NCBI GenBank assembly: GCA_963840195.1
Contig: CAWIYD010000015.1
Span: 8,112 to 72,111 of the forward strand
Source of the DNA: an uncultured Actinomycetes bacterium
GTDB lineage: Bacteria > Actinomycetota > Actinomycetes > Streptosporangiales > Streptosporangiaceae
Direction of reading: 5' to 3'
DNA: 64,000 nucleotides
The notes under the pieces are model-generated. The model was not told the origin of the DNA, did no database searches, and saw only the letters and a program-made list of their open reading frames with translations. Shown here piece by piece: positions 5,427 to 57,315 of the stretch. How positions within the stretch are numbered: the first letter of the stretch is position 1; each line of letters opens with the position of its first letter. The translations under genes were made by a program, and so were the position numbers.

Positions 5427-7025
5427 GGCAGCTGGGCCAGGCTGATGCGGCCGGCCCGCAGCGCGGCCAGGTGCCGCGCCAGCCAGGCGTGCCGGACGGC
5501 AGCTGGCAGCGCGGCGAATCGCTGGGCGGCGGCGTAGCCGGGCGAGCCGGGGGCCAGCCCGGGCCGGGCTCGGTCCCGCCACCGCCAGGGTCGGCTGCAT
5601 CCCGGCACTGGGCGCGCGCCGCGGCACCCCGTGCCGCGGGCCGCCGCCGGGGCAGCCGCGAGCGGGGCAGGTACCGCGGCACCACGCGGGCCGCCAGCAG
5701 CAGCGCGGTCATGACCGCGTGCTGCGCCTGGGATGCGCCGGGACCGGCGCCGAGTGACGCTGGCCACGATGCCGGGCCCGGCGCTCGACCGTACCTGGCC
5801 GGCCAGTTCGCTGGTGGTCATCGGCGGGCCTGTCACCTGGACGGGGAGGAGCACGCGGAACACCGGCGGCGCCGCCGCTGAGGCCGGGCCGGCCAGGCCG
5901 ATGCTGACGCTGTTGCCGGGTCCCTGCCGGTAGGTCGCGGCGGCCTGGCTGATGCGGGCCGGGGCGCCGGGCAGGCCGGCGACCTCGCTGAGCATCGGGC
6001 GCGAGCGCGGCCGCGATGGCGGGCAGGTAGCTGGCGTAGGCGGGGTTCAGGCAGACCGGGATCGGCGGTGTGGCTGCAGACCGGGGTGTAGCGGAGCGGC
6101 CGGTCGCTGGCCGCGTCATGCAGGGCGGGGATGGCGATCATGCCGTGGGCGTCCAGCCGGCCGGTGCCGGCCAGCGCCGACGGCGGTCCCGGCCGCCAGC
6201 AGCCCGGCCGCGGTGATGGCCGCGGCGGCCCGGCGCGAGCCACCGCCCGCCGGCACCGGTGGGCAGGGCCAGGGCGCCCAGCACCGCCATGCGTGAGCCC
6301 GGCGAGGAACATCACCTGGGCGATGGGCAGGTCGGGCAGGTAGGGGTAGAAGGTGGCCGCGCCCGGATCGGGCCCGATATCCCAGGGGTCGGCGACCACC
6401 GGCGAGACCTGCCAGTACGACTGGCTGCCGACGATCAGCTGGGTGCTGAGCGCGAGCACGAAGAACGCGGCGATCGCGACCAGCGGGGCGGTGAACCGGC
6501 CGGGAACCAGCGCCCCGGCCGCGAACCCGAGCGCGGACAACGCGGGCAGGCTCGCGGCGGCGACCGCCGCGGGCCACCACAGCGGGCCGCCCCAGGTGGC
6601 CTGGTGCGCGGTCATCCCGTACAGGACGGCCACGCAGGCCAGGTAAGCCCACCAGCGCCCAGCAGGTGGTGGCGGCCCAGGTGGCCAGCAGGCGGGCCCA
6701 CCGCGGCCGGGCGGTGACGCCCACCAGGTCGGTGACGTGGCGGCGGGCTTCCCGCGACCCCATCCAGGCGGCCGCGCCAGCCACCGGGCATGCGAAGGTC
6801 ACCACGGCGCCGGTCTGCATGCTGGTGGCGCGCACGTTCCACAGGGGCGGCATGGCCATGGCCTTGCGGTAGGCGGTCAGCCAGAACAGCGCGATGGCCA
6901 CCGGCAGCAGCCACAGCATGGCGCTATGGCGCAGCTCCAGGCGCAGCAGCCGGGCCGCCGCCAGCCAGGGCCGGCGCTGCGGCCGGGCGGGCCCGGGCAC
7001 CGGCCGGTGCGCTGCTGGCGGTCAT
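5423..7025 (-). pseudogene. large ABC-associated membrane/permease-like protein, at least 3 frameshifts
   Basis: Colinear hydrophobic pieces in three minus frames (ORFs 6116-7000, 5833-6633, 5423-5995), e.g. ...LWLLPVAIALFWLTAYRKA..., ...APLVAIAAFFVLALSTQLIVGSQSYWQVSPV.... It lies directly downstream of the ABC ATPase (stop/start overlap at 7022-7025). Start is either 7025 (ATG, wrong frame) or 7000 (GTG). Confidence 0.5.
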
Positions 7026-9345: not shown

Positions 9346-10059
<714 letters not shown>

Positions 10060-16775: not shown

Positions 16776-16834
16776 CCCATCCCCGGCACGGGACGCGCCG
16801 GGCTTCCTGGCCCGCGGACGGCGCCGGCGCGATG

Positions 16835-19332: not shown

Positions 19333-22300
19333 TCAGCCGTAGAACAGCCGCTCCATGACGGCGCGGGCCCGGCGCGCGGTGCGCCGGTAGTCCTCGACCA
19401 GGTCCTGGCCGCCATCGGGCGGGTAGCCGAGGATCCTGGCCACCGCGCTCAGCTCGGCCTGCTTGACCGGCAGCATGTCCGAGGGGCGGCCGCGCAGCAG
19501 CACGACCGCGTTGCGGATCCTGGTGGCCAGCCGCCAGGAGGCGGCCAGCGCGGCCGCGTCGTCGGCGCGGATCAGGCCCGCCTGCTCGGCCGCCGACAGC
19601 GCCGCGAGGGTGCGGGTGGTCCGCAGCCCGGCCACCTCATAGGCGTGGGTGAGCTGCAGCAGCTGGACCACCCACTCCACGTCGGACAGGCCGCCGGGGC
19701 CCAGCTTGAGATGCAGGGCGGGGTCAGTGCCACGGGGCATCCGTTCGGCTTCCATGCGTGCCTTGAGCCGCCTGATCTCCCGCACCGAGGCCTCGGAGAT
19801 GCCGCCCGCGGGGTACCGGAACTCATCGGCCATCTCCCGGAAGCGGTGGCCGAGCTCCCGGTCCCCCGCGGCGGGCTCGGCCCGGAGCAGCGCCTGCGCC
19901 TCCCAGGCGAGCGACCAGCGCTCGTAGTAGGCGCGGTAGGACGCGAGCGTGCGGACCAGCGGGCCCTGGCGGCCCTCCGGCCGCAGCCCGGGATCGATCT
20001 GCAGGGGCGGATCGGGGGCGGGCTGGCCGAGCAGCCTGCGCATCTCCTCGGCCACCGCGTGCGCGGCCCGCGATGCCGCCTGCTCCGGCGCGCCGGGCAG
20101 CGGGTCGTGCACGAACATCACGTCCGCGTCGCTGCCGTAACCGGTCTCCCGGCCGCCGAACCGGCCCATGCCCACCACGAGCACCCGGGTGGGCAGCGGT
20201 CCCCCCTCCTCCCGCTCGACGTGGCGGATCGCCGCGTCCAGCGCGCCCCCGATGGCCACCGCCGTGATCACCGTCAGCGCCTCGCTGGACTCCTCCACCG
20301 AGGTCAGCCCGAGCAGGTCCGCGGCCGCGGTGCGGAGCAGCTCGCGGCGGCGCAGCGCGCGGACCGCCTGCGCCGCCCCATCGGCGGTGGCGTGCCTGCT
20401 GACGACCGCGGCCACCTCGGCGTGCAGCGCCGCGGCCGGGCGCGGGGCCAGCTGCTCGTCCGAGCCGAGCAGGGCGACCGTCTCGGGGGCGCGCATCAGC
20501 AGGTCCGTCGCGTAGCGGCTGGAGGCGAGCAGCCGGGCCATCCGGCGGGCCACGTTCGTGTCGTCGCGGAGCAGCCGCAGGTACCAGGGCGAGTCCCCCA
20601 GGGCATCGCTGACCTGGCGGAACGCCAGCAGCCCGGCGTCCGGCTGGGCCGCGTCGGCGAACCATCCCAGCATCACCGGCAGCAGCGTGCGCTGGATCGA
20701 GGCCCGCCGGGACACCCCGGAGGTGAGGGCCTCGATGTGCCGCAGCGCCCCGGCCGGGTCGGCGTAGCCGAGGGCCTCGAGCCGGGCCCGGGCCTCCTCC
20801 CGGGTCAGCCGGACCGCGTCCGGTGGGCAGCCGGGCCACCGCATCCAGCAGCGGGCGGTAGAACAGCTTCTCGTGCAGCCGCCGGGCCTCCCGGGCATGC
20901 TGCCGCCACTGGGCCATCAGCTCGGCGGCCGGGTCGGCACGCGACGGCGGCGCCGGGGGCGGCCGCGCCGTCCCGGGTGCGGGCCCGGCGCAGCGCGCGG
21001 CCCAGCCGGCGCAGCGCCGCGTCGTCCTCCGGGAGGGTGTGGGTGCGCCGCAGCTGGCGGAGCTGCAGCAGGTGCTCGACGGTGCGCAGGAAGCGGTAGG
21101 CGGAGGCCATCGTGGCCGCGTCCTCCCGGCCGACGTAGCCGCCCTTGGCCAGCGCGGCCAGCGCCGGGAGGGTGCCCCGTTCCCGCAGCGCCTCATCGGT
21201 CCGGCCGTGCACCAGCTGGAGCAGCTGCACGGCGAACTCGATGTCGCGCAGCCCGCCCGGCCCGAGCTTGAGCTGGCGCGGGGCCTCGCCGGGGGCCAGG
21301 TTGCCGATCACCCGGCGGCGCATCGCCTGCACGTCCGCCACGAAGTGGGGCCGCCGCGAGGCCTGCCACACCATCGGGCTCAGCGCGTCGATGTACGCCT
21401 GTCCCAGCTCCCGGTCGCCGGCCACCGGGCGGGCCTTGAGCAGGGCCTGGAACTCCCAGGTCTTGGCCCAGCGCTCGTAGTAGGCGCGGTGGCTGGCCAG
21501 GGTGCGCACCAGGGGGCCGTCCCGGCCTTCCGGGCGCAGGTTCGGGTCCACCGGGAACAGCGCCCCTTCGGCGGTGGCCTGCGAGCAGACCCGGACCAGG
21601 CCGGCCGCCAGCCGGGTAGCGGTGCGCAGCGCCGCGGTCTCGTCCGGTCGGGCCATCGCGGGCGAGGCGGGGTGCGCCGCAGGCGTGTCCGCGCCGAGCG
21701 CGCGATCTCGCCGGGGGTTCCGGGGGGTCGTCGCCCGCGGGGCTGGCAGCGCGGCGCGGCCACGAAGATCACGTCTACGTCGCTGGCGTAGTTGAGTTCC
21801 CGGCCGCCGCACTTGCCCATGGCGATGACCGCCAGCCGGGCCGGTGCCGCGTCGTCCGGCAGCTGTGACCGGGCGATGGCCAGCGCCGCCTCCAGCGCCG
21901 CGGCCGCCAGGTCCGCGAGTTCCGCCGCGGTCTCATCCACGGTCACCGCGCCGGTGAGGTCCCGTGCCGCCAGCTGCAGCAGGCGGCGGCGGTAGGCCGC
22001 GGGCAGCGCGGTGGCTGGATCACCGCCGTGGGCGGCGGCCGGGTCCGCCACCGGGGCGGCCTCGTCGGGACGGGCGCCGACCGCCCGCAGCAGCTCGGCC
22101 CGCAGGTCGCCGGCGGACGCCCCGTGCAGGGCATCCGGCCCGGACAGCACGTGCCAGTCCCCCGGGTGGCGGGCCAGGTGGTCACCGAGAGCCGTGCTGG
22201 CGCCGAGCACCGCCGTGAGCCGGGCGCGCAGCCCGGCGTCCTCGCGCAGCGCCCCGGTCAGGGCACCGTCACGGGGCATCCGGGCCAGCGCGGCCAGCGC

Positions 22301-22465
22301 CAGATCCGGGTCGGCCGCGGCGGCGAGCGCGGCCAGCAGGCTCGCGTCGGCACCGTCCACGTCCAGGGCCAGGTCGTCGCTGATGATCCGCTCGGCCCGG
22401 GCTGCGTCGGCGAAGCCCATCCGGGCCAGCCTCCCAGCCGGTGTCGTCCTCCGGCGCACGCTCAC
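19333..22465 (-). pseudogene. glnE: bifunctional glutamine-synthetase adenylyltransferase/adenylyl-removing enzyme GlnE, at least 3 frame changes
   Basis: Colinear GlnE pieces in four minus-frame segments. (1) 22465 down to about 21780: ...[28 protein letters not shown]. (2) About 21650-20960: ...[40 protein letters not shown]...[15 protein letters not shown].... (3) About 20960-20830: ...[34 protein letters not shown]. (4) 20830-19333: the second nucleotidyltransferase half ...VVGMGRFGGRETGYGSDADVMFV...IDPGLRPEGRQGPLVRTL.... Confidence 0.9.
21650..21742 (+). repeat. GC-rich palindromic repeat (E-element) copy inside glnE
   Basis: GGGCCATCGCGGGCGAGGCGGGGTGCGCCGCAGGCGTGTCCGCGCCGAGCGCGCGATCTCGCCGGGGGTTCCGGGGGGTCGTCGCCCGCGG aligns position by position with the units at 40819-40990. 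Confidence 0.8.
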
Positions 22466-22662: not shown

Positions 22663-25600
22663 TCCCTAACAGAAGCCGGGAGGCTCCGGCGCCGGGGCCG
22701 TCAGAGACGGCCCCGGCAGGGGGGTGCACCGGGGGGGGTAGGTGCACAACGGATAGTCTCCGCCGGCCCGGTAACGTCCCGGTAGCGTCAGTTAGCGAAG
22801 GGATTGTCAGGCTCCGACCGCGTGGTCGGCACGTAGCCGCCCAGGCAGCGTGCCCGTGCCCGCGGCCGCCGGAGATGGTGCCCGGCCGCGGCGGCGCCTC
22901 GCCGCGCAGCCTGGCCCGGACCTGGTCCGCGTCCGAGTGGTTCAGGTCCTCCAGGATGGTCAGCGCGTCCTGCCAGGCCTGCTCGGCCTGCCCCGGCTCG
23001 CCGATCGCGTGGTAGGCGTCCCCGAGGTGGACCAGCATCGTGGTCTGGTAGTAGCCCGGCCGGAAGCCCTCGATGGTGCGCAGCGCGGTGCGCAGGCAGC
23101 CGATCGCCTCTTCCAGCCGGCCCAGGTGGAACAGCACGTAGCCGACGCTGTCCCAGGTGGCGGCCTGGTTGAGCGGGTCCCCGTGGCCCTGGTACATGCC
23201 GAGCGCCTGCTCGCAGTACTCCAGGGCCTGCTCATAGTCGCCGAGCTTGGCGTGCATCCAGCCGACCCCGTTGAGCATCCTGGCCTGGCCCGGCTCGTCG
23301 CCTTCCTCCCGGTACAGGTCGAGGGACAGCTGGGCGTGCCCGAGCGCCTCGGCGAGCCGGCCCTGCCGCTCGGCCAGCAGCATGATCTCGTTGTGCGCGC
23401 GGGCCTCACCGAGCCGGTCGCCGGCTTGGCGGTGCAGGTCCAGGGACTGACGGCAGTAGTCGCGCGCCTCGGCGAGCTGGCCGAGCCGGCCGTAGGCCGC
23501 GCCGAGGTCCCGGCAGGCGTGGGCCTGGCCGGTCAGGTCACCGAGGCGCTCGGCCGCGGCCACCGCGGTCCGCTGGATGGCGACCTGGTCGTGCCAGTAG
23601 CCGGCCCGGTCGAACAGCAGCCACACCGCCCACGGCAGCTGCCACGCGTAGCTGCCGAACCCGGCCTGGTCGGCCAGCGCGATCGCGGCCAGCAGGACCT
23701 GCCGCTCGGCGGCGAACCAGTCGCGCGCCTCGCTCACCGAGCTCAGGGTCTCCGGGGTGACGCCCGGCTGCGGGGGCGCCAGCCGCACGTGGGCCCGGGT
23801 CGGGTTGAGGGCCAGGCTGCCCGAGTAGGCGCTGTGCAGGTAGTGGTCCAGGACCCGGTGCACCGCCTGCCGCCGCTCCGCCTCGTCGTCCGTGGTCCGG
23901 GCCAGGTCGGCCGCGTAGGCCCGGAGCAGGTCATGGAAGGCGTAGCGGCCCGGGGCGTGCTCGGCGATCAGGTGCGCATCCGCCAGCTCGGCCACCGCGG
24001 CCGCGGCCGCCGGCGGCTCCAGCGCGGCCAGGCTGGCCGCGGCCGCGATGCTGACGTCCGGCCCGGGGTGCAGGCCGAGCAGCCGGAACAGCCGGCCGGC
24101 GGTCTCGCTGAGCTGCTCGCAGGACCAGGAGAACACGGCCCGGACGCTGGCCACGGGATCCCCGGCGTCCAGCGCGTCCAGCCGTCCCTGCGCGTCGGCG
24201 AGCTCACGGGCCAGCCCGGTCAGCGGCAGGAACGGCCGGGCCGCCGCCCGGGCCGCCACGATGCTCAGCGCCAGCGGCAGCCGGGAGCACGACTCGATGA
24301 GCTGGTCGGCCGCCTCCGCCTCGGCGCCGGCCCGCTCGCCCAGCCGCCCGGCCAGCAGCTCATGGGCCTCGGCCGCGGTCAGCACGTCGAGCGGGACGAG
24401 CCGGGCGCCCTCGGTGGCGGCCAGGCCGGGCAGCCGGGCCCGGCTGGTCACCAGCACCAGGCAGGTCGGGCTGCCCGGCAGCAGCGGCCGCACCTGGGCG
24501 GGGTCGCGGGCGTTGTCCAGGATGACCAGCATCCGCTTATCCGCCAGCACGCTGCGGTACAGGGCCGCCTGGGCGTCGAGGCTGTCCGGGATCTGCTCCT
24601 CGGTCACCCCGAACGCGCCCAGGAACCAGCGGAGCGCATCGGCCGGGGTCACCGGCGCGCCCGACGGGCCGAAGCCGCGCAGGTTGACGTAGAGCTGGCC
24701 GTCGGGGAACTCCGCCGCGCACTGGTGCGCCCAGTGCACCGCGAGCGCCGTCTTGCCCGCTCCGGCCGTTCCGCCGATGACGAGGATCTTGACCGCCCGG
24801 GACGCGGCGGCGTCGCGCATCCAGGCGTGCAGTTCAGCCAGTTCCGCGCTGCGCCCGGCGAAGTGGGCCACGCCGGCCGGCAGCTGGCGCGGCACGACGC
24901 CGGCCTCGCGGCCGCCCTGGCCCGCCTGGACGGCCAGGGCGCCTGGTGCGGCCGTTCCCGGGACGGCGGCGGCCGGGCTCCCGGCGGGCGCCCCGCCCGG
25001 GCTCGCGGGCGGGTCTCCGGCCGGCCTCCGCACCCGGTCCTGGCCGTCCCGGCCCGGCCCGGCGGAGCGGATCCGGTCCTGCCCGGCCTTGGCCGGCCCG
25101 GGCGGGCGGCCCCGGCCGCTGCTGCGCCGCCGCGGCCCGCTCGCGCGCCGGCCGGCGGCGGTCCCGGCCGGCGCCGCACCGTCAATGGCGCCATGCTCAC
25201 GGGGCGGGCGCAGGAAGCCGGCCAGCGCCGGACCCGGCGCGGCCAGCCCCGGGTCGGCCGCCAGGATGCCGACATGCAGGTCACGAAGTTCCCCGCCGGG
25301 TTCCACGCCGAGTTCATCCACCAGCATCCGCCGGGTCCGCTGGTAGGCGGCCAGCGCCTCGGCCTGCCGTCCGCAGCGGTACAGGGCCAGCATCAGCTGG
25401 GCATGGAAGCGCTCCCGCCACGGGTGGTCGCGGGCCAGCTGGGTGAGCTCGGCGACCAGCTCGGCGTGGCGGCCCTGGGCCAGCCCGGCGTCCATCCGCC
25501 ATTCCTGGGCCTGCATCCGCAGCGCGTCCAGCCGCGGCACTTCCGCCGTGATCAGCGCGTTCGAGGGCACGTCGACCAGCGGGTTCCCGCGCCACAGGCC

Positions 25601-27639: not shown

Positions 27640-29541
27640 GTGACCAGGCTGCGAATTGCCCTCGCCCAGGTGAATTCGACCGTCGGCGACCTGGCCGGCA
27701 ACGCCGCGACGGTGCTCGAGTGGAGCCGCCGCGCGGCGGAGGCCGGGGCCGCCCTCGTCGTGTTCCCGGAGATGATGCTCACCGGGTACCCGGTGGAGGA
27801 CCTCGCGCTGCGCGCCTCGTTCGTGACCGCGTCCATGGCCACGCTGGAGGACACCGCCCGGCAGCTGGCCGCGGGCGGCCTGGGCGGCATCGCGGTGGTC
27901 ACCGGCTACCTGGGCCGGCGGGCCGGGGGCACGCCCCGGGCCGGCGAGCCGGCCGGCGCCCCGCAGAACGCCGCGGCCCTGCTCTACGGCGGCGCGGTCG
28001 CGGTGACCACGGCCAAGCACCACCTGCCCAACTACGGCGTGTTCGACGAGTACCGCTACTTCGTGCCGGGCGACCGGCTGCCGGTGGTCCGCGTCCCCGC
28101 CAGTGCTGGCCCGGGGGCGCGACCCCCCGGAACCCCCCGCGATCCGCTGGCTCGGAGAGACCCGCCTTCGGCGGGCCCCGCCTCGCCAGCGGCGGTGGAC
28201 GTGGCCATCGCCATCTGCGAGGACCTGTGGCAGGACGGCGGCCCGGTGGCGGTCACCCGCCAGGCCGGGGCCGGCCTGCTGGTGGTGCCGAACGCCTCCC
28301 CGTACGAGCGCGGCAAGCACGAGGCCAGGCGGCAGCTGGTCGCCCGCCGGGCCCGCGAGGCGGGGGCCGCGCTGGCCTACGTGAACATGATGGGCGGCCA
28401 GGATGAGCTGGTCTTCGACGGGGACTCGATCATCGTGGACGCGGCCGGCGAGCTGATTGCCCGCGGGCCGCAGTTCGAGGAGGCCCTGCTGGTGGCCGAC
28501 CTGGACCTGCCCGCCGCCCGGGACGACATCCTCCCCGGCGGGGACACCGCCGCCGACCCCAGCGACGGCACCGTGATGACCGTGCACCGGGTCACGCTCG
28601 GTGCCAGCCCGGGTGGGCCACCCCCCGGAACCCCCCGCGATTCGCCGGCCGCCGCCGGGCCGCTGGTGGCACCCCGGCTGCCGCCGCTGGCGGAGGTCTA
28701 CGCCGCGCTGGTCACCGGCGTGCGCGACTACGTGGGCAAGAACGGCTTCCGGTCGGTGATCCTGGGCCTGTCCGGCGGGATCGACTCGGCCCTGGTGGCC
28801 ACGATCGCCGCCGACGCGCTCGGCCCGGAGCGGGTGCACGTGGTGCTGATGCCGAGCCGGTACTCCTCGGAGCACTCGGTCAGCGACGCGGAGGACCTGG
28901 CCAAGCGGCAGGGCCTGCAGGCCCGCACGGTGCCCATCGCGGCCATGGTGGACGCGTTCGAGGGCGAGCTGGACCTGGCCGGGCTGGCCGCGGAGAACCT
29001 GCAGTCCCGGGTCCGCGGGGTGATCCTGATGGGGCTGAGCAACGCCGAAGGGCACCTGGTGCTCACCACCGGCAACAAGAGCGAGATCGCCACCGGGTAC
29101 TCCACCCTGTACGGGGATTCGGCGGGCGGCTTCGGCGTGATCAAGGATGTGCTCAAGACGCTGGTGTGGGACCTGGCCCGGTGGCGGAACGAGCAGGCCG
29201 CGGCCCGCGGGGAGACGCCGCCCATCCCGGAGAACTCGATCACCAAGCCGCCGAGCGCCGAGCTCGCCCCCGGTCAGCTGGACACCGACTCCCTTCCCGA
29301 CTACGGAACCCTGGACGCGCTGCTCGACGACTACGTGGAGAAGGACCTGGGCGCGGCGGAGCTCATCGCGGCGGGGCATGACCCGGACCTGGTGGACCGG
29401 GTCATCCGGCTGGTGGACCGGGCCGAGTACAAGCGGCGGCAGTACCCGCCGGGCACGAAGATCACGCCGCGCAACTTCGGCCGGGACCGGCGGCTGCCGA
29501 TCACCAACCGGTGGCGCGAACCGCACCCGGGCGCTAGCTGA
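27640..29541 (+). CDS. nadE: glutamine-dependent NAD+ synthetase
   Basis: GTG 27640 gives VTRLRIALAQVNSTVGDLAGN.... CN-hydrolase domain (VVFPEMMLTGYP, KHHLPNYGVFDE, AIAICEDLW). Synthetase domain with LGLSGGIDSALVA, ...LTTGNKSEIATGYSTLYGDS..., ...KRRQYPPGTKITPRNFGRDRRLPITNRW. The ORF is intact despite two repeat-derived insertions (see findings). Confidence 0.95.
   Translation: MTRLRIALAQVNSTVGDLAGNAATVLEWSRRAAEAGAALVVFPEMMLTGYPVEDLALRASFVTASMATLEDTARQLAAGGLGGIAVVTGYLGRRAGGTPRAGEPAGAPQNAAALLYGGAVAVTTAKHHLPNYGVFDEYRYFVPGDRLPVVRVPASAGPGARPPGTPRDPLARRDPPSAGPASPAAVDVAIAICEDLWQDGGPVAVTRQAGAGLLVVPNASPYERGKHEARRQLVARRAREAGAALAYVNMMGGQDELVFDGDSIIVDAAGELIARGPQFEEALLVADLDLPAARDDILPGGDTAADPSDGTVMTVHRVTLGASPGGPPPGTPRDSPAAAGPLVAPRLPPLAEVYAALVTGVRDYVGKNGFRSVILGLSGGIDSALVATIAADALGPERVHVVLMPSRYSSEHSVSDAEDLAKRQGLQARTVPIAAMVDAFEGELDLAGLAAENLQSRVRGVILMGLSNAEGHLVLTTGNKSEIATGYSTLYGDSAGGFGVIKDVLKTLVWDLARWRNEQAAARGETPPIPENSITKPPSAELAPGQLDTDSLPDYGTLDALLDDYVEKDLGAAELIAAGHDPDLVDRVIRLVDRAEYKRRQYPPGTKITPRNFGRDRRLPITNRWREPHPGAS
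28108..28192 (-). repeat. E-element copy inside nadE (glutaminase domain), translated in frame
   Basis: GGCCCGGGGGCGCGACCCCCCGGAACCCCCCGCGATCCGCTGGCTCGGAGAGACCCGCCTTCGGCGGGCCCCGCCTCGCCAGCGG is the reverse complement of the 40.9-kb unit. It encodes ...GPGARPPGTPRDPLARRDPPSAGPASPAA.... Confidence 0.85.
28608..28648 (-). repeat. partial E-element copy (G/C-hairpin half) inside the nadE interdomain linker
   Basis: CCCGGGTGGGCCACCCCCCGGAACCCCCCGCGATTCGCCGG matches one half of the element. It encodes ...SPGGPPPGTPRDSPA.... Confidence 0.75.
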
Positions 29542-32201: not shown

Positions 32202-33886
32202 TCAGCCTTCCACGCGTGCCTCGGCACCGAGCACGGCCGGGATCTCGGCCACGACGGTGTCCTGGCGACCCGCGTCCTGCGCGGCGTCGGGCTGCGCCGC
32301 GGCGGCAGCCGCCCGGCCCGGCATCCAGATCAGCACGACCAGCGCACCGAGCAGGGTGATCACCGCCGAGATCAGGGTGGTGACGTGCATCGCGTGCACG
32401 AACGCGGTGTTGGCATAGCTGTCCAGCCGGGCTCCGGCGCCGCCCAGCCGGGCGGCCACCGCCTGGGTCGCGGTGATCGAGCCGGTGGCCGCGGTCCGGG
32501 CCGTGGCCGGCACCGCGGTCAGGTGCGGGCTCAGCTGGCCCCGGTACACCTGGGCCAGGATCGAGCCCAGCACCGCGACGCCCAGTGCCCCGGCGACCTG
32601 GCGGGCGGTGTTGGTCAGCGCCGATCCCGAGCCGGCCCGCTCCCGCGGCACCACCGACATGACCGCCTCGGTGGCCGGCGGCATCACCGAGCCCATGCCC
32701 GCGCCCTGGATGAAGAAGATGACGCCCAGCACCCAGATCGGCGTGCTCAGGCCGAGCAGCAGGTAGCCGAACAGCGCGACGGCCACGGTGATCAGCCCGG
32801 TCGCGGCGACCGCCTTGGTGCCGTACCGCCTGACCAGCCGGGAACTGCGCGGTGCCATCAGCATCTGGCCCGCCGCGAACGGCAGCGTCAGCACGCCCGC
32901 GTACAGCGGGGTGTAGCCGCGCACGCTCTGCAGGTAGAAGCTGAGGAAGAACAGCGCGCCCATCATGCCGAAGAAGACCAGCCCGAGCGCGCCGACCGCG
33001 GAGGACAGCCGCGGGTCACGGAACAGCTTCACGTCCAGCGACGGGTGTGACTGAGCCGGGTCTCGTACCAGCCGAACAAGGCCAGCACCGCGAGTCCCGC
33101 GACGGTGATGCCGAGCACGTCCCAGTGGATCCAGGAGCCCTTCTCGCCGCCCTGGATGATGCCGTACACCACGAGCACCAGGCCGACGATGGACATCGCG
33201 ACGCCCGCGTAGTCGATCCGGCCCGGGTTGGGGTTCCGGGACTCCGGGACGAGCAGCAGGATGGCCAGCACGCCGGCCGCGGTGAGCGGCACGTTGATGA
33301 GGAAGACCGAGCCCCACCAGAAGTGGGCCAGCAGCAGGCCGCCCACGATCGGGCCGATCGCCACGCCGATGCCGACGGCGGTGGCCCAGATGCCGATGGC
33401 CTTGGCCCGCTCGCGCGGGTCGAAGACGTTGGAGATGATGGACAGCGTCTGCGGCATGACGGCCGCCGCGCCGAGGCCCATGGCGGCCCGCGCGAAGATC
33501 AGCTGATCCGGGTTGCGCGAGTAGGCGGTGATCAGCGAGAACACGCCGAACGCGGCCATGCCGAACATCAGCATCTTCTTGCGGCCGATCCGGTCGCCGA
33601 TCACCCCGAAGGTGAACAGCAGGCCGGCGAAGACCAGCGTGTAGGAGTTGATCCCCCACTCCAGCTGGCTCTGGCTGGCGCCCAGGCCCGCGGGCTTGGG
33701 CTCGGCGATGGTCTTGAGCGCGACGTTGAGCACCGTGTTGTCCAGCACGATGGCGATCAGGCTGATGACCAGCACGCTGAGGATGGCCCAGCGGCGGCGG
33801 TAGATCCTGTCGGCGGCGGCCGACCTGGAGGGCGGGAGGAGCGCCCCGGCGGGCCCGGAGCCGGGCCCTGCATTGCGGTTAACCAT
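32202..33886 (-). pseudogene. MFS transporter (DHA2/EmrB-QacA type, 14-TM), one frameshift near 33040
   Basis: N-terminal half (33886-33029): ...LDNTVLNVALKTI...GDRIGRKKMLMFGMAAFG...MPQTLSIISNVF.... C-terminal half continues in another frame from ...HPSLDVKLFRDPRLSSAVGALGLVFFGMMGALFFLSFYLQ... to 32202. Confidence 0.85.
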
Positions 33887-34163
33887 GGGGTCCTTCTGGG
33901 TCAGTGGTCTGTCACGTCATCGCCGCCCGGGAAGGCCGGCGCGGCCGGTGGTGTTTCCCGGGACAGGCGCCCGGCGGATCGGGCCGCCGGGAAGCTATCG
34001 ATACGGAACCAGCCCGTATCGGAAAAGATTCCCGCCGGCCGGGGCGATTTCCGCCGGGACTTCCGGGCGGGACTTCCGGGGGTTACCTCCGGCGCCCGCC
34101 GCGTGCCATCATCGAGAGGTCCGGGGACGCCGAAGCGGCGCCACGAGACCAGGAGGATCAAGG

Positions 34164-40790: not shown

Positions 40791-40995
40791 CCCCGGGGCC
40801 TTCGGGGGGTCGCCCCCCGGGCCTTCGCAGGCGAGGCGGGGCGCGGCGGAGCCGTGTCCCCACCGAGCCGGCGAATCGGGGGGGCTCCGGGGGGTCGCCC
40901 CCCCGGGCCTTCGCAGGCGAGGCGGGGCGCGGCGGAGCCGTGTCCCCCCGAGCCGGCGAATCGCGGGGGGTTCCGGGGGGTCGCCCCCCCGGGCC
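40791..40995 (+). repeat. tandem array of the E-element (partial end + 2 x 86-bp units) between ssuD and the FMN reductase gene
   Basis: GGGCCTTCGCAGG recurs at 40819 and 40905 (period 86), and GGGCC again at 40991. Unit: GGGCCTTCGCAGGCGAGGCGGGGCGCGGCGGAGCCGTGTCCCC(A/C)C(C)GAGCCGGCGAATCG(C)GGGGGG(C/T)TCCGGGGGGTCGCCCCCCC. Several internal stem-loops (CCGGGGGG-TCG-CCCCCCCGG; GCCGGCGAA...TTCGCAGGC). Confidence 0.9.
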
Positions 40996-41013
40996 AATAC
41001 AGAGGAGGCACCG

Positions 41014-48566: not shown

Positions 48567-48597
48567 CCGCCACCATGCGCCCCTTCCGGCGTTACCT

Positions 48598-48683
48598 GCC
48601 CGAGGGGACGATCCCCCGGATCCCCCTGGATTCGCTGGCCCGGAGGGGACACCCGCACCGGCGCGCCCCCGCTTCGCCAGCGG
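48598..48683 (-). repeat. degenerate E-element copy (intergenic)
   Basis: GCCCGAGGGGACGATCCCCCGGATCCCCCTGGATTCGCTGGCCCGGAGGGGACACCCGCACCGGCGCGCCCCCGCTTCGCCAGCGG is colinear with the reverse complement of the 40.9-kb unit, with multiple substitutions. Confidence 0.7.
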
Positions 48684-48736
48684 TCGCACCCACGATACCC
48701 GGCGGAGCGGACATCACTCCCGCTAGCGGACGGTGA

Positions 48737-48944: not shown

Positions 48945-49793
48945 ATGGCGACTGTGCTCCATCCCGGCCGGCAATCCCCGCCCCGGCAGGTCCCGGCCAG
49001 CATTCCCCGGCCGGAGTACGTGGGCCGCAAGTACCCGCGCACCGGCGAGACCGAGGTCAAGGACGCCGAGACGATCGAGCGGATGCGGGCCGCCTGCCAG
49101 CTGGCCGCCCGCGCACTCGCCGAGGTCGGCCGGCACGTCGCGCCCGGGGTCACCACCGACGAGCTGGACCGGGTCGGCCACGAGTACCTGGTCGCCCATG
49201 GCGCCTACCCGAGCACGCTCGGCTACCGGGGCTACCCGAAGTCGCTGTGCACCTCGCTGAACGAGGTGATCTGCCACGGGATCCCGGATGACACCGTGAT
49301 CGCCGACGGCGACATCGTCAACGTGGACATCACCGGCTACCTGAACGGGGTGCACGGCGACACCAACGCGACCTTCCTGGCCGGCGACGTGGACGAGGAG
49401 TCCCGGCTGCTGGTCGAGCGGACCCACGAGGCCATGATGCGGGGCATCCGGGCGGTCGCCCCGGGGCGCCCGCTCAACGCGATCGGCCGGGTCATCGAGT
49501 CCTACGCCCGGCGGTTCGGCTACGGCGTGGTCCGCGACTTCACCGGGCACGGCATCGGCACCACCTTCCATTCCGGGCTGATCGTGCCGCACTTCGACGA
49601 CCCGGACGTGGACGTGGTCATGGAAGAGGGCATGACGTTCACCATCGAGCCGATGCTCACCCTGGGCACGATCGCCTATGACGTATGGGACGACGGCTGG
49701 ACCGCGGTCACCAAGGACCGCAGGCGGACCGCCCAGTTCGAGCACACCATCCTGGTCACCGGCGACGGCTACGAGATCCTGACGCTGCCCTGA
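48945..49793 (+). CDS. map: type I methionine aminopeptidase
   Basis: ATG 48945. ...[16 protein letters not shown]...[23 protein letters not shown]...GHGIGTTFH...MTFTIEPML...QFEHTILVT.... Confidence 0.95.
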
Positions 49794-52126
49794 GTCACGG
49801 CCTCCGGCACGGCCGCCGCCTCCCGTGGCACGGCCGCCCCACGCACGGCCGCCGCCTCCCGTGGCACGGCCGCCCCACGCACGGCCGCCGCCTCCCGTGG
49901 CACGGCCGCCCCAGGCACGGCCGCCCCGGGCACGGGGCCCGCAGGCGCGTCCTGGTCATGGCACAGCAGGCGGCGGCCCGGCAGCCAGGCCAGCCAGCGC
50001 GGCAGGTACCAGGCGCGCTCGCCCAGCAGGGCCAGCGCCGCGGGCACCAGGATGCCGCGCACCACGGTCGCGTCGATGAGCACGGCGGACGCCAGGCCGA
50101 CGCCGATCATCTTCAGGTCGATGATGGACAGCGTGGCGAAGATCGAGAACACCGCCACCATGATCACCGCCGCGCTGGTCACCACGCCGGAGCAGCTCGC
50201 GATGCCGCCCACGATCGCGTCGCGGTGACGATTCGCCGCGGCCGCGCAGCTCCCGGATCCGGCTCAGGATGAACACGTGGTAGTCCATGCTCAGCCCGAA
50301 CAGGAACACGAACATGAACAGCGGCACCCAGGGGATGATCGCGCCGAACGAGGTGAAGCCGAGCAGTCCCTGCAGCCGCCCCTGCTGGAAGATCAGGGTG
50401 ATGCAGCCCGTAGGCCGCGCCGACCGACAGCAGGTTCAGCCCGATGGACACCAGCGGGATGGCCAGTGACCGGAACGCCACCATGAGCAGCACCAGCGCC
50501 AGCGCCGCGACGACGCCGAACACGATGGGCGTGCTGGACCGCAGCGCCGCACTGAAGTCATAACCGCCGGCCGTGTCGCCGGTGACGGCGTAACTCGTCC
50601 CGGGCACCGTCCCGATGGTGGCGGGCAGGATCTGGTTGCGCAGGTCCAGCAGGGCCGCGCGGGACACCGAGTCGGAGCCGTCGCCGGCCAGCGGCACCGA
50701 GATGACCAGCCCGCGGCCGCCGCCGACCACCTCCGCGGTGACCGGGCGGTGGATGACGCCGTGCGCCGAGGCCCGGGCCTGCAGGTCGGCGACCGCGCTG
50801 CGCATGCTGGCACTGGACACGTCGCCGCCGGTCACCACCACCTCGGCCGGGGCCGGCCGCCCCGGGAAGTCGTGCGCGATCTGGTCCAGGGTGCGCACCA
50901 CCGGCAGCCGCGCGGGCAGGTCGATGGCCGGGCTGCCGATGCGCAGGCCGAGCGCCGGGGCGGCCAGCGCCAGCAGCGTGAGCGCGGCCGCGCCGCCCCA
51001 GATCAGCGGGCGGCGGACCACCCGGCGGACCAGGGCGGTCCACAGCCGGGACGGCCGGGCCTGGGTCCGGTGCCGGCCCAGGAACGGGATCCGGCCCCGG
51101 TCCGCCCACGGGCCGAGCAGGCTGAGCAGCGCGGGCAGGAAGGTCACCGAGCCGACCACCGCGACGCCGACCACCAGGATGGTGCCGACCGCGATGCCGG
51201 TGAAGAAGTTGATGCCGGTGAGCAGCAGCCCGGCCAGCGAGATCATGACGGTGAGGCCGGACACCACGATGGCCCGGCCGGAGGTGGCCGCGGCGGTGGC
51301 CAGGGCGGCCGGGAAGGACGCGCCCGCGGCTCGCTCCTCCCGCTCGCGGCGCAGGTAGAACAGCGAGTAGTCGACCCCGACCGCCATCCCGATGATCAGC
51401 ACCACCTCGGAGGTGCTGGACCCGATCGGCAGCCAGCGGCTGGGCACGGCGAGCAGCGAGACGGCCACCATGACCGAGCTGCCGGCCAGCAGCACCGGGA
51501 TGCCGGCCGCGATGAGCGCGCCGAACACCGCGACCAGCAGGATCAGCGTGATCGGCACCGAGGTGAGCTCCGCCTTGCGGAAGTCCTGGCCCATCATCGT
51601 GTTGGCGGCCCGGTCGGTGCTCGCGCCACCGGCCTCGGCGATGCTCAGGCCGGGGTGGGCGGCCGCGACCCGGGCGACCGCCGCGAGGTCCGTGCCCACG
51701 GTGGTGTCGGCCTGCGCGTGCGGGCCGGCCACGTCGAACGTGACCAGCACGGTGCGGCCGTTGGCCGAGACCATGGCCTGGCCGCCCGGGCTGAGCGGGG
51801 ACCGGATGCCGCGCGCCGCCCCTGGGTGCGCACGCAGCGCGCTGACCACGTCCGCGACGGCGCCGCGCAGCGCCGGGTCCCGGGCCCAGGTGGCCCCGGC
51901 GGCGTGCGCCCCGCGCCTGGAGGAGCACGGTCTCCGCGGGCGGGCTGACCACGCCCAGCTGGTGCAGCGCCCGCTCGGCCTGCCCGGCCTGCCCGGGGTC
52001 GTACTGCTGCTGGTTCTGCGTGCCCAGCAGCTGCCCGGCCACCATGGCCACCGCGGCGAGCACCAGCCAGCCGATGACGACGGCGACCCGGTGCCGCGCG
52101 CTCCAGCAGGCGATGCGCTCCACCAT
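49769..52126 (-). pseudogene. MMPL family transporter (paralog 1), at least 3 frameshifts
   Basis: N-terminus MVERIACWSARHRVAVVIGWLVLAAV (ATG 52126). Central 556-aa piece (50179-51849) with ...GMAVGVDYSLFYLRREREER.... C-terminal TM bundle split over three frames (...PWVPLFMFVFLFGLSMDYHVFILSRIRELR... / ...VVTSAAVIMVAVFSIFATLSIIDLKMIGVGLASAVLIDATVVRG...). Confidence 0.85.
49807..49935. repeat. 3.5 tandem copies of a 36-bp unit (GCACGGCCGCCGCCTCCCGTGGCACGGCCGCCCCAC)
   Basis: Units at 49807, 49843 and 49879, plus a partial. On the minus strand they encode (AAVPREAAAVRG)x3 as the C-terminal tail of the first MMPL ORF. Confidence 0.9.
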
Positions 52127-52349
52127 GGGCGGCCGGGCCGGAAGCTCCCCGGGCGGCGGCCCGGCCGCCTGCCTGCGGCCTCCCGGCGCCGGGCCGGGTA
52201 CCGCAGGCAGGGCGGGCAGCGGGGTAACGGCGCCGGGCGGCGCCGGGTCGAGCATGTCGCGCATCATGCCTCGCGGGGTCATAGATCGGCCGACCCGCGC
52301 GCAAGGGCTAGACGCACGCGTCATGATTCCCGTTCAGCATGCCAGATAT

Positions 52350-54588
52350 TTATGACACTGACGTCAGTGTCTGGCGATTATGCGGAATCTTGCAGGAAAC
52401 GTTCAGCCTGCTGGCGGCCGGTCTCCGCTGCTGGCCGGGGAGCCAGCGCAGCCAGCGCGGCAGGTACCAGCTGCGCTCGCCGAGCAGGGCCAGGCAGGCC
52501 GGCAGCAGGACGCCGCGGACCACGGTGGCGTCGATCAGCACCGCCACCCCGAGGCCGACGCCCAGCATCTGCAACTGCACGAGGGACAGCGTGGCGAAGA
52601 TCGAGAACACCGCCACCATGATCACCGCCGCGCTGGTCACCACCCCGGCGCTGCTGGCCACCCCGCCGACCACCGCGTCCGGCGTGCTGGCGCCGCGCCG
52701 CCGCAGTTCCGCGATCCGGCTCAGGATGAACACGTGATAGTCCATGCTCAGCCCGAACAGGAACACGAACATGAACAGCGGGACCCACGGCACGATCGCG
52801 CCGTAACTGACCAGGCCGAGCGCGCTGGCCACGCGGCCGTGCTGGAACACCAGCGTGAGCAGGCCATAGGACGCGGCCACCGACAGCAGGTTCAGCGAGA
52901 CCGACACCAGCGGGATGGCCACCGAGCGGAACGCGACCAGCAGCAGGACGAACGCCAGCGCGGCCACCACGGCCAGCACCAGCGGGGTGCGGGCCCGCAG
53001 CACCGCCAGGTCGTCGAAGTTCGCGGCCGTGTTGCCCGCCACCGCGTACCTGATGCCACCGGCCCGGCCCAGGGTGGCCGGCAGCACCTGCTCGCGCAGC
53101 GCCAGGAGAGCCTGATTCGAAACGGCATCCACCCCGTTGCCGGCCAGCGGCACGCTGACGAGTAGTGCGCGCCCGCCGGCCACCGGCGCCACCGTGACCG
53201 GGCCCCGCACCGGGCCGCGGCCTGACGCGTCGGCCCGCAGTGCGGCCGAGCGCGCGCCGCACCGCCACCCCGCCCAGGTCATGGCCGGTCACGACCACCT
53301 CCGCGGGCGCGGGATGGCCCGGGAAGGCCCGGTCGATCCGGTCCAGGGTGGCCACCACCGGCACCTTGGCCGAGAACCCGCCGTCCGGCGGGTTGCCCAG
53401 CCGCAGGCCCAGGCCGGGCGCGGCCAGCGCCAGCATGGCCAGCGCCGCCACCGAGCCCCAGGCCGCGGGATGCCGGACCACCCGGCGGGCCAGCGCGGCC
53501 CACAGCCGGGACGGGCGGGCCGCGGTGCGGCGCCGGCCCAGGAACGGGATCCGGCCCCGGTCGGCCCAGGGGCCGAGCCAGGCCAGCAGGGCGGGCAGCA
53601 CGGTGAGCGAGCCGGCCACCGCCACGCCGACCACCGCGATGGTGCCGATGGCGACGCCGGTGAACACCGAGTACCCGGTGAGGAACAGGCCGCCCAGCGC
53701 GATCATCACGGTCAGCCCGGAGACCACGATGGCCCGGCCCGAGGTGGCCGCGGCCCGGCGCAGCGCCTCGGTGGTGCCCGCGCCGCGGGCCCGTTCCTCC
53801 CGCTCCCGGCGCAGGTAGAACAGCGAGTAGTCGATGCCGACCGCCATGCCGATGATCAGCACCACCTCCGAGGTGCTCGACCCGACCGGCAGCCACTGCC
53901 CGGGAATGGCCAGCAGCGAGACCGCGGTGATGACCGCGGTCGCGGCCAGCAGCAGCGGGATCCCGGCCGCGATGAGCGCGCCGAACACCCCGGCCAGCAG
54001 GATCAGCGTGACCGGCACCGAGGTCACCTCGGCCTGCCGGAAATCGTGGCTGATCAGCGCGTTGGCGGCCCGGTCGGTGCTGGCGTCACCGGCCTCGGCG
54101 ACCAGCAGGCCCGGATGGCGGGCCGCCACCGCGGCGACCGCGCGCAGCGCCGGGGCCACCGCCTGGTCCTCGTTGCTCACGTTCCCCGGCACCGTGAAGG
54201 TGACCAGGGCGCTCCGCCCGTCCGCGGAGACCAGCCCGGGGTGCCCGGGGTCCAGCGGCGAGGCGATGTCCCGCGCCGCGTGCGGCAGCGCGGCCAGCGC
54301 GGCGGTGACCTGCCGGGCCGTGGCGCGCATGGCCGGGTCGGTCGCGAAGGTGGCGCCCGGCCCGCCGCTCCCCCGCGACTGGATCAGCACGCTCTCGGCC
54401 GGCGGGCTGGTCACGCCCAGCCGGTGCAGGGTCTGCTCGGCCACCCCGGACTGCCCGGCGTCGTAGGACGGCACGTTCTTGGCCGGCAGCAGCTGCCCGG
54501 CCACGAACACCGCGGCGACGAGCAGCAGCCAGCCGAGCACCGCCGTCTTGCGGTGCCGGGCGCTCCACCCGGCGATCCGCTCGACCAC
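52350..54588 (-). pseudogene. MMPL family transporter (paralog 2), one frameshift near 53270
   Basis: N-terminal 430+ aa in ORF 52378-54588 (MVERIAGWSARHRKTAVLGWLLL...GMAVGIDYSLFYLRREREER...). C-terminal half in ORF 52350-53282 (...PWVPLFMFVFLFGLSMDYHVFILSRIAELR...VLIDATVVRG...). Colinear with paralog 1 throughout. Confidence 0.85.
52354..52371. promoter_or_regulatory. perfect 18-bp palindrome GACACTGACGTCAGTGTC in an AT-rich patch between the two MMPL genes
   Basis: Read directly. Flanked by ...AGATATTTAT and TGGCGATTATG.... It lies about 230 nt upstream of the MMPL-1 start and at the MMPL-2 stop. Confidence 0.4.
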
Positions 54589-54701
54589 CGGCGCGCGGGA
54601 TCGGGCTGTTGCTCGCGGGCAGACGCGGTTTCGGGCAATACTGAACTGGACGGCTGGCGCATCATGGCCTCTCTCAGGGCAGTGCGTGAGTCTGTCGTGA
54701 C

Positions 54702-57207: not shown

Positions 57208-57233
57208 GCCAGCGATGCTACGCCGCTCTGCTA

Positions 57234-57315
57234 GCCCGGGGGCGACCCCCGCAGCCCCCGTCCATTCGCCGGTTCGGCGGGGACACGCCTGCGGCGAGCC
57301 CCCCTGGCCCGCGAA
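57234..57315 (-). repeat. degenerate E-element copy between livF-like stop and cutA start
   Basis: GCCCGGGGGCGACCCCCGCAGCCCCCGTCCATTCGCCGGTTCGGCGGGGACACGCCTGCGGCGAGCCCCCCTGGCCCGCGAA is colinear with the reverse complement of the 40.9-kb unit. Confidence 0.7.

Follow-up and report, generated by a model that had tools for sequence, protein, structure and literature searches.

Selfish palindromic DNA that invades essential genes without breaking their reading frame has been seen as something peculiar to Rickettsia and to a small number of other lineages. The closest described systems are the Rickettsia palindromic elements (RPEs; Ogata et al. 2000), which in the review PMC10969869 are selfish hairpin repeats that survive in frame as loop insertions in essential genes. 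According to that account, RPEs are short palindromic or hairpin repeats scattered through the genome, including between genes, and a sizeable fraction lies in frame in unrelated housekeeping genes, at fold-compatible sites and with the peptide translated within the host protein. Here we describe a repeat family that behaves like these elements. It was found in a 64-kb window (the whole stretch of DNA that was analyzed, 64,000 nucleotides from an uncultured Streptosporangiaceae actinomycete; G+C content, 73.7%), where one copy sits inside glnE, the gene for the bifunctional glutamine synthetase adenylyltransferase (19333..22465, minus strand, as delimited by open reading frames [ORFs], Pfam domains, and a repaired ORF). 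The repeat copy within glnE is real. The break in the reading frame at the same place is, with a probability that we put at roughly 0.7, an indel error of long-read metagenome assembly.

The glnE copy spans 21653..21749 on the minus strand, with a head at ~21712-21749 and a hairpin tail of the type that we call class 5 at ~21653-21711 of the coding strand. When compared with the unit of an intergenic array in the same window, hereafter the 40.9-kb unit, the copy aligned from end to end at 74% identity (72/97 identical, 7 gap columns). The local score was 91, while shuffled sequences reached 21 +/- 3.5 with a maximum of 39, and all other window segments that scored at least 40 against the unit were themselves copies of the element. 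In addition, the tail was identical at 38 of 39 positions to a tail of equal length on an unrelated soil-metagenome contig, L147 (E = 8e-14). Given the margin over shuffled sequence and the match to L147, chance and mere low complexity are excluded. The sequence-only reading that preceded our analysis had described a full-length match at 21650-21742; the end-to-end alignment agrees with that description, but the earlier span cut ~7 nt from the head. The family head motif TGCTGGCCCGGGGGGGCGACCCCCCGGAACCCCCC is present in the copy as a diverged head, CTGCCAGCCCCGCGGGCGACGACCCCCCGGAACCCCCG, with a CGA duplication and a shortened G-run. The class-5 tail motif ...CTCGGCGGGGACACGCCTGCGGCGCACCCCGCCTCGCC... 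is also present, and the tail keeps, by eye, the complementarity between ATCGCGCG and CCCGCGAT. From GGAA to GCCTCGCC, the copy measures 53 nt versus 51 nt in the first copy within nadE and in the unit. The earlier statement that a C5 run was the only difference from nadE and the consensus is not confirmed, since the copy differs from them by several indels. A single-sequence nhmmer search with the 40.9-kb unit recovered only three window copies and missed the one in glnE, being too insensitive at such a composition; copies were then detected by motif, BLAST-short, and pairwise scans.

In the protein, the copy immediately follows DVDVIFV, which forms the catalytic strand of the first (N-terminal) nucleotidyltransferase module of GlnE. 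With the intact C-terminal half of GlnE as the query, we retrieved 80 loci from species-representative genomes. The closest were L001 (96% amino acid identity) and L002 (95%), followed by a group at ~88%. These two and the nearest other relatives are uncultured Streptosporangiaceae-like metagenome-assembled genomes (MAGs) of the Microflora Danica (MFD) series, and more distant matches came from Actinomadura, Spirillospora, and Actinoallomurus. One further close relative, L201, is a European Nucleotide Archive (ENA) contig (ERZ25039517 contig_24679; 92.5% nucleotide identity) to which the GlnE fragment of the window led by way of its 90% protein cluster; an exact-protein look-up of three window proteins found no contig on record. 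Across 70 orthologs, the loop between the conserved anchors ranged from ~0 to 123 nt. Most cultured genera have 15 nt, and many of the closer relatives have 24 nt; the loop encodes P/A/G-rich sequence that varies between species. Its length is a multiple of three in 68 of these 70 orthologs, the exceptions being L010 (95 nt) and L015 (55 nt), both of them MFD MAGs; the window loop, at 110 nt, is likewise no multiple of three. On the structure of Escherichia coli GlnE (1V4A), residues 154-191 and 199-406 are matched by the flanks of the insert, and ~28 extra window residues fall between these two blocks. The range of ortholog lengths and the position at residues 191-199 of 1V4A both place the insertion in a variable loop, as the sequence-only reading had supposed.

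Three close relatives carry derivatives of the element at the identical site, and all three are in frame. In L201, the loop (5440-5610) is ~150 nt long and holds a complete head and, after it, 3.5 head units of 42 nt in tandem, which read in frame as LLARGGDPPEPPGISS(RGGDPPEPPGISS)2RGGDPPEPGDETAALR. The (RGGDPPEPPGISS)n loop of L201 shows in its own right that the head alone can amplify as an in-frame minisatellite. The L002 loop consists of 54 nt in frame, comprising the head, GCGATGG, and flank, read as VLAPGDGPPEAPAMAQPDE, and L001 retains a 39-nt in-frame remnant. From in-frame derivatives at one site in L201, L002, and L001, it follows that the insertion predates their split and was translated. 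An ancestral, in-frame, translated insertion in glnE is thus well supported by these loops, and the comparison with sister genomes favors the earlier proposal that glnE first held an in-frame element.

In the window itself, glnE lacks a single ORF. Conserved GlnE sequence is distributed over ORFs 21380-22465, 20805-21812, part of 19823-21196, and 19333-20898, and it is still encoded by each of four frame segments on the minus strand (22465 to ~21715, ~21715 to ~20953, ~20953 to ~20821, and ~20821 to 19333). Pfam domains PF03710 and PF08335 were found both in the window GlnE fragment P0001 and in the sister protein P0121 of L201; these domains, in two tandem nucleotidyltransferase modules, are collinear with those of the orthologs, and the window protein matches structures 1V4A and 3K7D. 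With three single-base repairs (a C added at the loop and one base taken off at each of the other breaks), the gene becomes one ORF of 1043 amino acids that is very like L002 GlnE and aligns over its full length with L001, L002, and L201.

Where the loop frame breaks is less certain than that it does. Judged by the loop length of 110 nt versus the multiples of three in 68/70 orthologs, the frame must change by +1 or -2 nt somewhere in 21650..21753 (minus strand). The sequence-only reading attributed the change to a single missing C in the run at 21713..21717 (G5 on the plus strand, C5 on the coding strand). Several of its premises hold: glnE enters the element in the nadE register (the head is read as RPPGTP in both genes), it leaves the element in that register (PASPA in both), and a C added to GGAACCCCCGG joins the entry and exit frames. 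One added C thus restores the frame, but the run itself aligns as a substitution of the same length, and several other sites are possible. Specifically, the C5-run segment CCCCCGGCGA has the length of the consensus CCCCCCGCGA and of the orthologous GCCCCCGCGA; likewise, GGAACCCCCGGCGA is equal in length to the consensus GGAACCCCCCGCGA and to GGAAGCCCCCGCGA of L002, and the 28-nt stretch GGCGACGACCCCCCGGAACCCCCGGCGA aligns without gaps to GGCGACGGCCCCCCGGAAGCCCCCGCGA of L002. Given equal lengths in the window, the consensus, and L002, C5 is more simply viewed as a C-to-G substitution within C6 than as a deletion. Furthermore, L201 and L002 read the head as GDPPEPP and GDGPPEAP (GAC CCC CCG GAA), one position off the RPPGTP of nadE, and heads are translated in five of six frames across the metagenome copies listed, so the nadE register is no constraint. 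Relative to both in-frame sisters, the window also has 4 extra nt just upstream of the C6 run, which makes two gained bases a live option as well, and several C4-C6 runs occur within 21650-21753. On these alignments, either a single base was lost at some point in this interval of ~100 nt or two bases were gained. To place the break at the C-run is a reasonable guess, and no more.

That the break arose in assembly is suggested by what surrounds it. Two other breaks in glnE, both on the minus strand, each consist of one extra base relative to L001 and L002; one (20950..20956) lies beside a plus-strand G5 run, and the other (20817..20823) is outside any homopolymer. These are most likely assembly indel errors too. 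Elsewhere in the window, a NarL/LuxR-type response regulator (9365-10056, plus strand; Pfam Response_reg 23-65, Response_reg 69-111, and GerE) is split over three frames, an MMPL transporter (49772-52333, minus strand) over three, and a major facilitator superfamily (MFS) transporter (32205-33916, minus strand) over two. For each of the three, successive pieces of ORF match successive stretches of one Pfam profile, and such splits, in at least three genes outside glnE, point to an indel-rich assembly. They were detected by a stricter filter on ORFs and on G+C at third codon positions (GC3) combined with Pfam, the GC3 frame plot being too noisy. Related genomes show comparable lesions. The AfsR/BTAD-TPR regulator of L002 has three private single-base insertions in ~650 nt (orthologous to window positions 23421, 23871, and 24074), and its window counterpart is one intact ORF of 1140 amino acids. 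Private out-of-frame loops occur in GlnE of L010 and L015 and in NadE of L005, and many GlnE matches from long ENA contigs are fragmentary. The MFD MAGs are Nanopore-only Flye assemblies that received one round of Medaka polishing (PMC12313526).

An argument can be made that the break is real. Under this alternative, glnE was inactivated by a homopolymer slip in the element, or the version of the element now present (~+56 nt relative to L002) never was a multiple of three, and the remaining frameshifts represent later pseudogene decay. The case for an assembly error is indirect, and some of our observations do weigh against it. In 12.7 kb that were compared base by base with L001 and L002, window-specific frameshifts were found only in glnE; the breaks are clustered rather than evenly spread, with three in 3.1 kb, and the neighboring genes are intact relative to both sisters. 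Genuine C5 variants of the head occur in the Illumina contigs L110 and L176, and thus real variation in run length takes place. The canonical array has a period of 86 nt, which is no multiple of three, and a truly out-of-frame copy is conceivable. In some actinomycetes, glnE is dispensable. The sequencing technology of the window is taken from that of its relatives, and, with respect to the element itself, the glnE copy does not fold as RNA any better than shuffled sequence (z = +0.93).

Nevertheless, the pattern of codon changes speaks against pseudogene decay. In a four-way codon alignment of glnE, we counted the changes private to each lineage and obtained 27 synonymous and 5 nonsynonymous changes for the window, a balance like that of the intact sisters (22 and 9 for L002, 55 and 21 for L001, and 31 and 6 for L201). 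These counts show purifying selection on the window branch. At 27 to 5, a long period of drift is not indicated, because three neutral frameshifts would bring dozens of mostly nonsynonymous changes. The gene is intact in all close sisters, conserved sequence persists in all four frame segments, unrelated genes in the window are split as well, and private frameshifts of a like kind recur in related MAGs. A real and very recent disruption is a possibility that we consider unlikely. With regard to the earlier choice between a homopolymer slip and a sequencing error, the second is the better option, and an assignment of the break to one specific C is not supported. The real glnE gene is probably intact.

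A different kind of error would be a local mis-assembly, in which the loop was collapsed or made chimeric at a repeat-rich, strain-heterogeneous site so that both the length and the sequence of the copy are wrong. Long-read metagenome consensus over mixed strains is prone to such errors, the same site measures 110, ~150, 54, and 39 nt in four close genomes, and heads stand in tandem at many loci. Yet the window copy combines a canonical head with a tail of canonical length that is nearly identical to an independent Illumina copy, and apart from the 1-nt length problem, nothing about it looks chimeric. We give this explanation even less credence than a real disruption. An indel error of the assembly remains the reading that we prefer.

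The glnE copy belongs to a much wider family. Its unit consists of a nearly invariant head of ~36 nt, (G)TGCTGGCCCGGGGGGGCGACCCCCCGGAACCCCCCG, joined to a hairpin tail of ~58 nt. Read on the coding strand of glnE and nadE, the head is a G-run/C-run hairpin with GGAA and then another C-run behind it, and the tail forms a long imperfect hairpin (ATTCGCCGGCTCGGCGGGG...CCCCGCCTCGCCGGCGAAT). When folded as DNA, the array gave -81.8 kcal/mol (z = -2.4). At gathering thresholds, Rfam had no match in the window. We searched the Joint Genome Institute (JGI) metagenomes with an exact 21-mer of the head and found at least 127 copies on at least 120 contigs (L081-L200). Among the matches listed, the head-bearing contigs come from soil and peat and have 66-76% G+C, heads often stand in direct tandem, and at least five distinct classes of hairpin-forming tail occur to the right of the head, including the window's class-5 tail, which recurs in L147, L165, L175, and L181. 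The head was almost invariant over at least 120 contigs and had a sharp left edge, (G)TG(C/T)T(G/A)G. By a heuristic based on GC3 and ORFs, 13 of the 91 evaluable Illumina copies among these matches (~14%) lie in frame inside coding sequences (CDS), in both orientations. For PurH, PyrB, an electron transfer flavoprotein (ETF) subunit, and a POR subunit, as well as for NadE of the window, Pfam confirmed a host domain that runs on past the insert, and inspection by eye added CarB (twice), GltB, and a DnaE-like polymerase. A variant head, GTGTTGGCCCAGGGGGGCGACCCCCTGGAACCCCCG, was found in a cultured strain, Spirillospora sp. NPDC127506 (L045 1225-1265), in which a G-to-A change in the left arm is matched by a C-to-T change in the right arm (CCCAGGGGGG...CCCCCTGG), so that the hairpin is kept. 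Variant heads also occur at L033 620-660 and L042 ~16302; where L045 has the paired change, a T:T mismatch is found instead in L033 and in several of the metagenome variants. Viral contigs yielded no matches to the head, and PLSDB plasmids none to the unit.

Could such loops have arisen without any mobile element, as convergent, low-complexity linkers of GC-rich, Pro/Gly/Ala-rich sequence? The orthologous loops are indeed low-complexity, P/A/G-rich, and very variable in length. This idea is, however, effectively refuted by the conservation of a 36-nt head with a sharp left boundary in at least 120 metagenome contigs and by the 38/39 tail identity to the unrelated L147; the same unit also occurs at intergenic positions, and the nadE site is filled in some genomes and empty in others. 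We find it hardly credible. Even more remote is the notion that the break is decoded at the C-run, whether by programmed ribosomal frameshifting or by transcriptional slippage, for which there is nothing beyond the presence of C-runs and against which stand two further glnE frameshifts in different contexts, plainly in-frame sister genes, and a C5 run that is short for slippage.

Besides the copy in glnE, the window contains other members of the family, for a total of six loci, three of which are inside CDS. The intergenic array that provided the 40.9-kb unit comprises ~2.4 direct copies with a period of 86 nt (40795..40999, head first on the minus strand). Two copies lie in nadE on the plus strand. 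The first (28104..28189) is in frame inside the CN_hydrolase domain, and the second (28603..28650), a head with the start of a tail, is in frame where a linker joins the glutaminase domain to the NAD synthase domain. The remaining two are class-5 copies, one diverged and apparently intergenic (48596..48685, plus strand; CCTGCCCGAGGGGACGATCCCCCGGATCCCCCTGGATTCGCTGGCCCGGAGGGGACACC...CGCTTCGCCAGCGG; it was not in the repeat-finder list) and the other between genes (57231..57310, plus strand). The first nadE copy is a clean presence/absence polymorphism between genomes. It adds a net 78 nt and is absent in L002, L006, L007, and most other orthologs; the corresponding NadE loop measures 70-73 nt in most orthologs, 148 nt in the window, and 85 nt in L001, which keeps a 15-nt deletion remnant containing CCGCCTCGCC. 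In the interdomain linker, L001 has three tandem heads versus one in the window. Comparison of filled and empty sites showed CGCCAG at both junctions of the first nadE copy; in this single instance, the hexamer may represent a target duplication or could be part of the element. As separate observations on the same NadE loop, L004 and L005 (orthologous to 28070-28200) carry unrelated insertions there: the loop of L004 measures 142 nt and contains tandem GGACGGGGGGTCCC(C/T) units, read as DGGSPDGGSLDG, and that of L005 measures 149 nt, which is no multiple of three.

How does this family relate to known systems? As in RPEs, in-frame copies are found in unrelated genes, the window's glnE copy being itself 1 nt out, and the sites appear to be fold-compatible and at variable or surface positions (the GlnE loop, the junction between the two domains of PyrB, and the interdomain linker of NadE). 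The hosts differ, in that ours is a free-living soil actinomycete with 74% GC and that of RPEs is an AT-rich obligate intracellular alphaproteobacterium. The present family, unlike RPEs, combines a ~36-nt head with interchangeable hairpin tails, often in direct tandem arrays, and its heads are translated in at least five frames and not as one conserved peptide. From host and base composition, sequence homology to RPE-1 to RPE-10 is very unlikely.

Similarities extend to other classes of small repeats. With repetitive extragenic palindromes (REPs), the mosaic elements that they form (BIMEs), and REPINs, the family shares a GC-rich imperfect palindrome of 30-40 nt with a conserved 5' flank, a high copy number, occurrence at the ends of genes and inside operons, and mosaic arrays in which other motifs take part. 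In contrast to those elements, it is not extragenic (~14% of evaluable metagenome copies listed and 3/6 window loci are in CDS), its arrays are direct and not alternating, and it is without a GTAG-type 5' tetranucleotide. REPINs are mobilized by RAYT transposases (Y1 HUH); no RAYT gene was identified in the 64-kb window, where none was searched for. [quoted passage not shown] It differs in that a repeat search of the unit made no terminal inverted repeats evident, the head is at one end only and arrays are direct, a possible 6-nt target duplication was seen in one filled/empty pair only, and no parent insertion sequence (IS) is known for a family whose partner gene was not searched for. Finally, mycobacterial interspersed repetitive units (MIRUs) are, like our repeats, short actinobacterial sequences that form tandem arrays within operons, with lengths that preserve translation. 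Compared by description only, however, MIRUs are minisatellite units of 40-100 bp that are intergenic in polycistronic operons and overlap small ORFs, and they do not occur as dispersed hairpin elements within the domains of enzymes. We found no description of the family from actinobacteria in the searchable literature, including by literal head sequence, which is not proof that there is none, and a 2024 review of MITEs does not mention actinobacteria. The family appears to be previously undescribed.

Some other features of the window deserve mention. The MMPL transporter is one of two tandem paralogs (49975-52137 and 52433-54599) that are ~80% identical and ~2460 nt apart; their spacing shifts from 2458 to 2457, 2456, 2460, and 2462 along the pair, a shift that locates single-base indels in one or both copies. 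Just upstream of them, at 49800-49940, is a short tandem array of ~4 copies with a 36-nt period, of the GCC(T/C)C..GGCACGGCCGCC type, which is unrelated to the element. A window-specific 1-nt indel at 16833 was considered as a possible gene frameshift and rejected, as it is intergenic and L001 and L002 also have two ORFs there.

From these comparisons, a history of the glnE copy can be proposed. A bona fide short, GC-rich, hairpin-forming interspersed repeat entered the hypervariable surface loop of GlnE in an ancestor of the window, L201, L002, and L001, and it was then kept as a translated loop extension rich in Pro, Gly, Arg, and Ala. Later remodeling took the form of tandem duplication of the head (L201), internal deletion (L002 and L001), and point changes. 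Since stop codons are nearly absent from the element in every frame, any insertion whose net length is a multiple of three can survive in a tolerant loop. We infer that the element spreads as mobile DNA with the help of an enzyme. On a broader view, which we hold at even odds, it would represent an undescribed and currently active family of soil Streptosporangiales-like actinobacteria, in which a mobilizing enzyme recognizes the head, the head is joined to interchangeable tails, and Pro/Gly/Arg-rich loops are repeatedly written into essential enzymes (GlnE, NadE, PurH, PyrB, CarB, GltB, and a DnaE-like polymerase).

For the organism at hand, the glnE "pseudogene" is probably an assembly artifact, although the exact base is not callable from sequence logic alone. 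This carries a warning for annotation pipelines, as inserts rich in G- and C-runs are the easiest places for false frameshifts in long-read assemblies. More generally, the family is abundant in soil metagenomes, polymorphic between genomes that are ~92% identical, and embedded without loss of frame in enzymes of core metabolism and of replication in free-living actinobacteria. It could offer a natural setting in which to study the tolerance of proteins to loop insertions, a marker for strain typing, and a lead to the mechanism of mobilization. If our interpretation is true, the family would constitute an RPE-like system in free-living, high-GC bacteria, and, through the variant in a cultured Spirillospora strain, it would be open to experiment.

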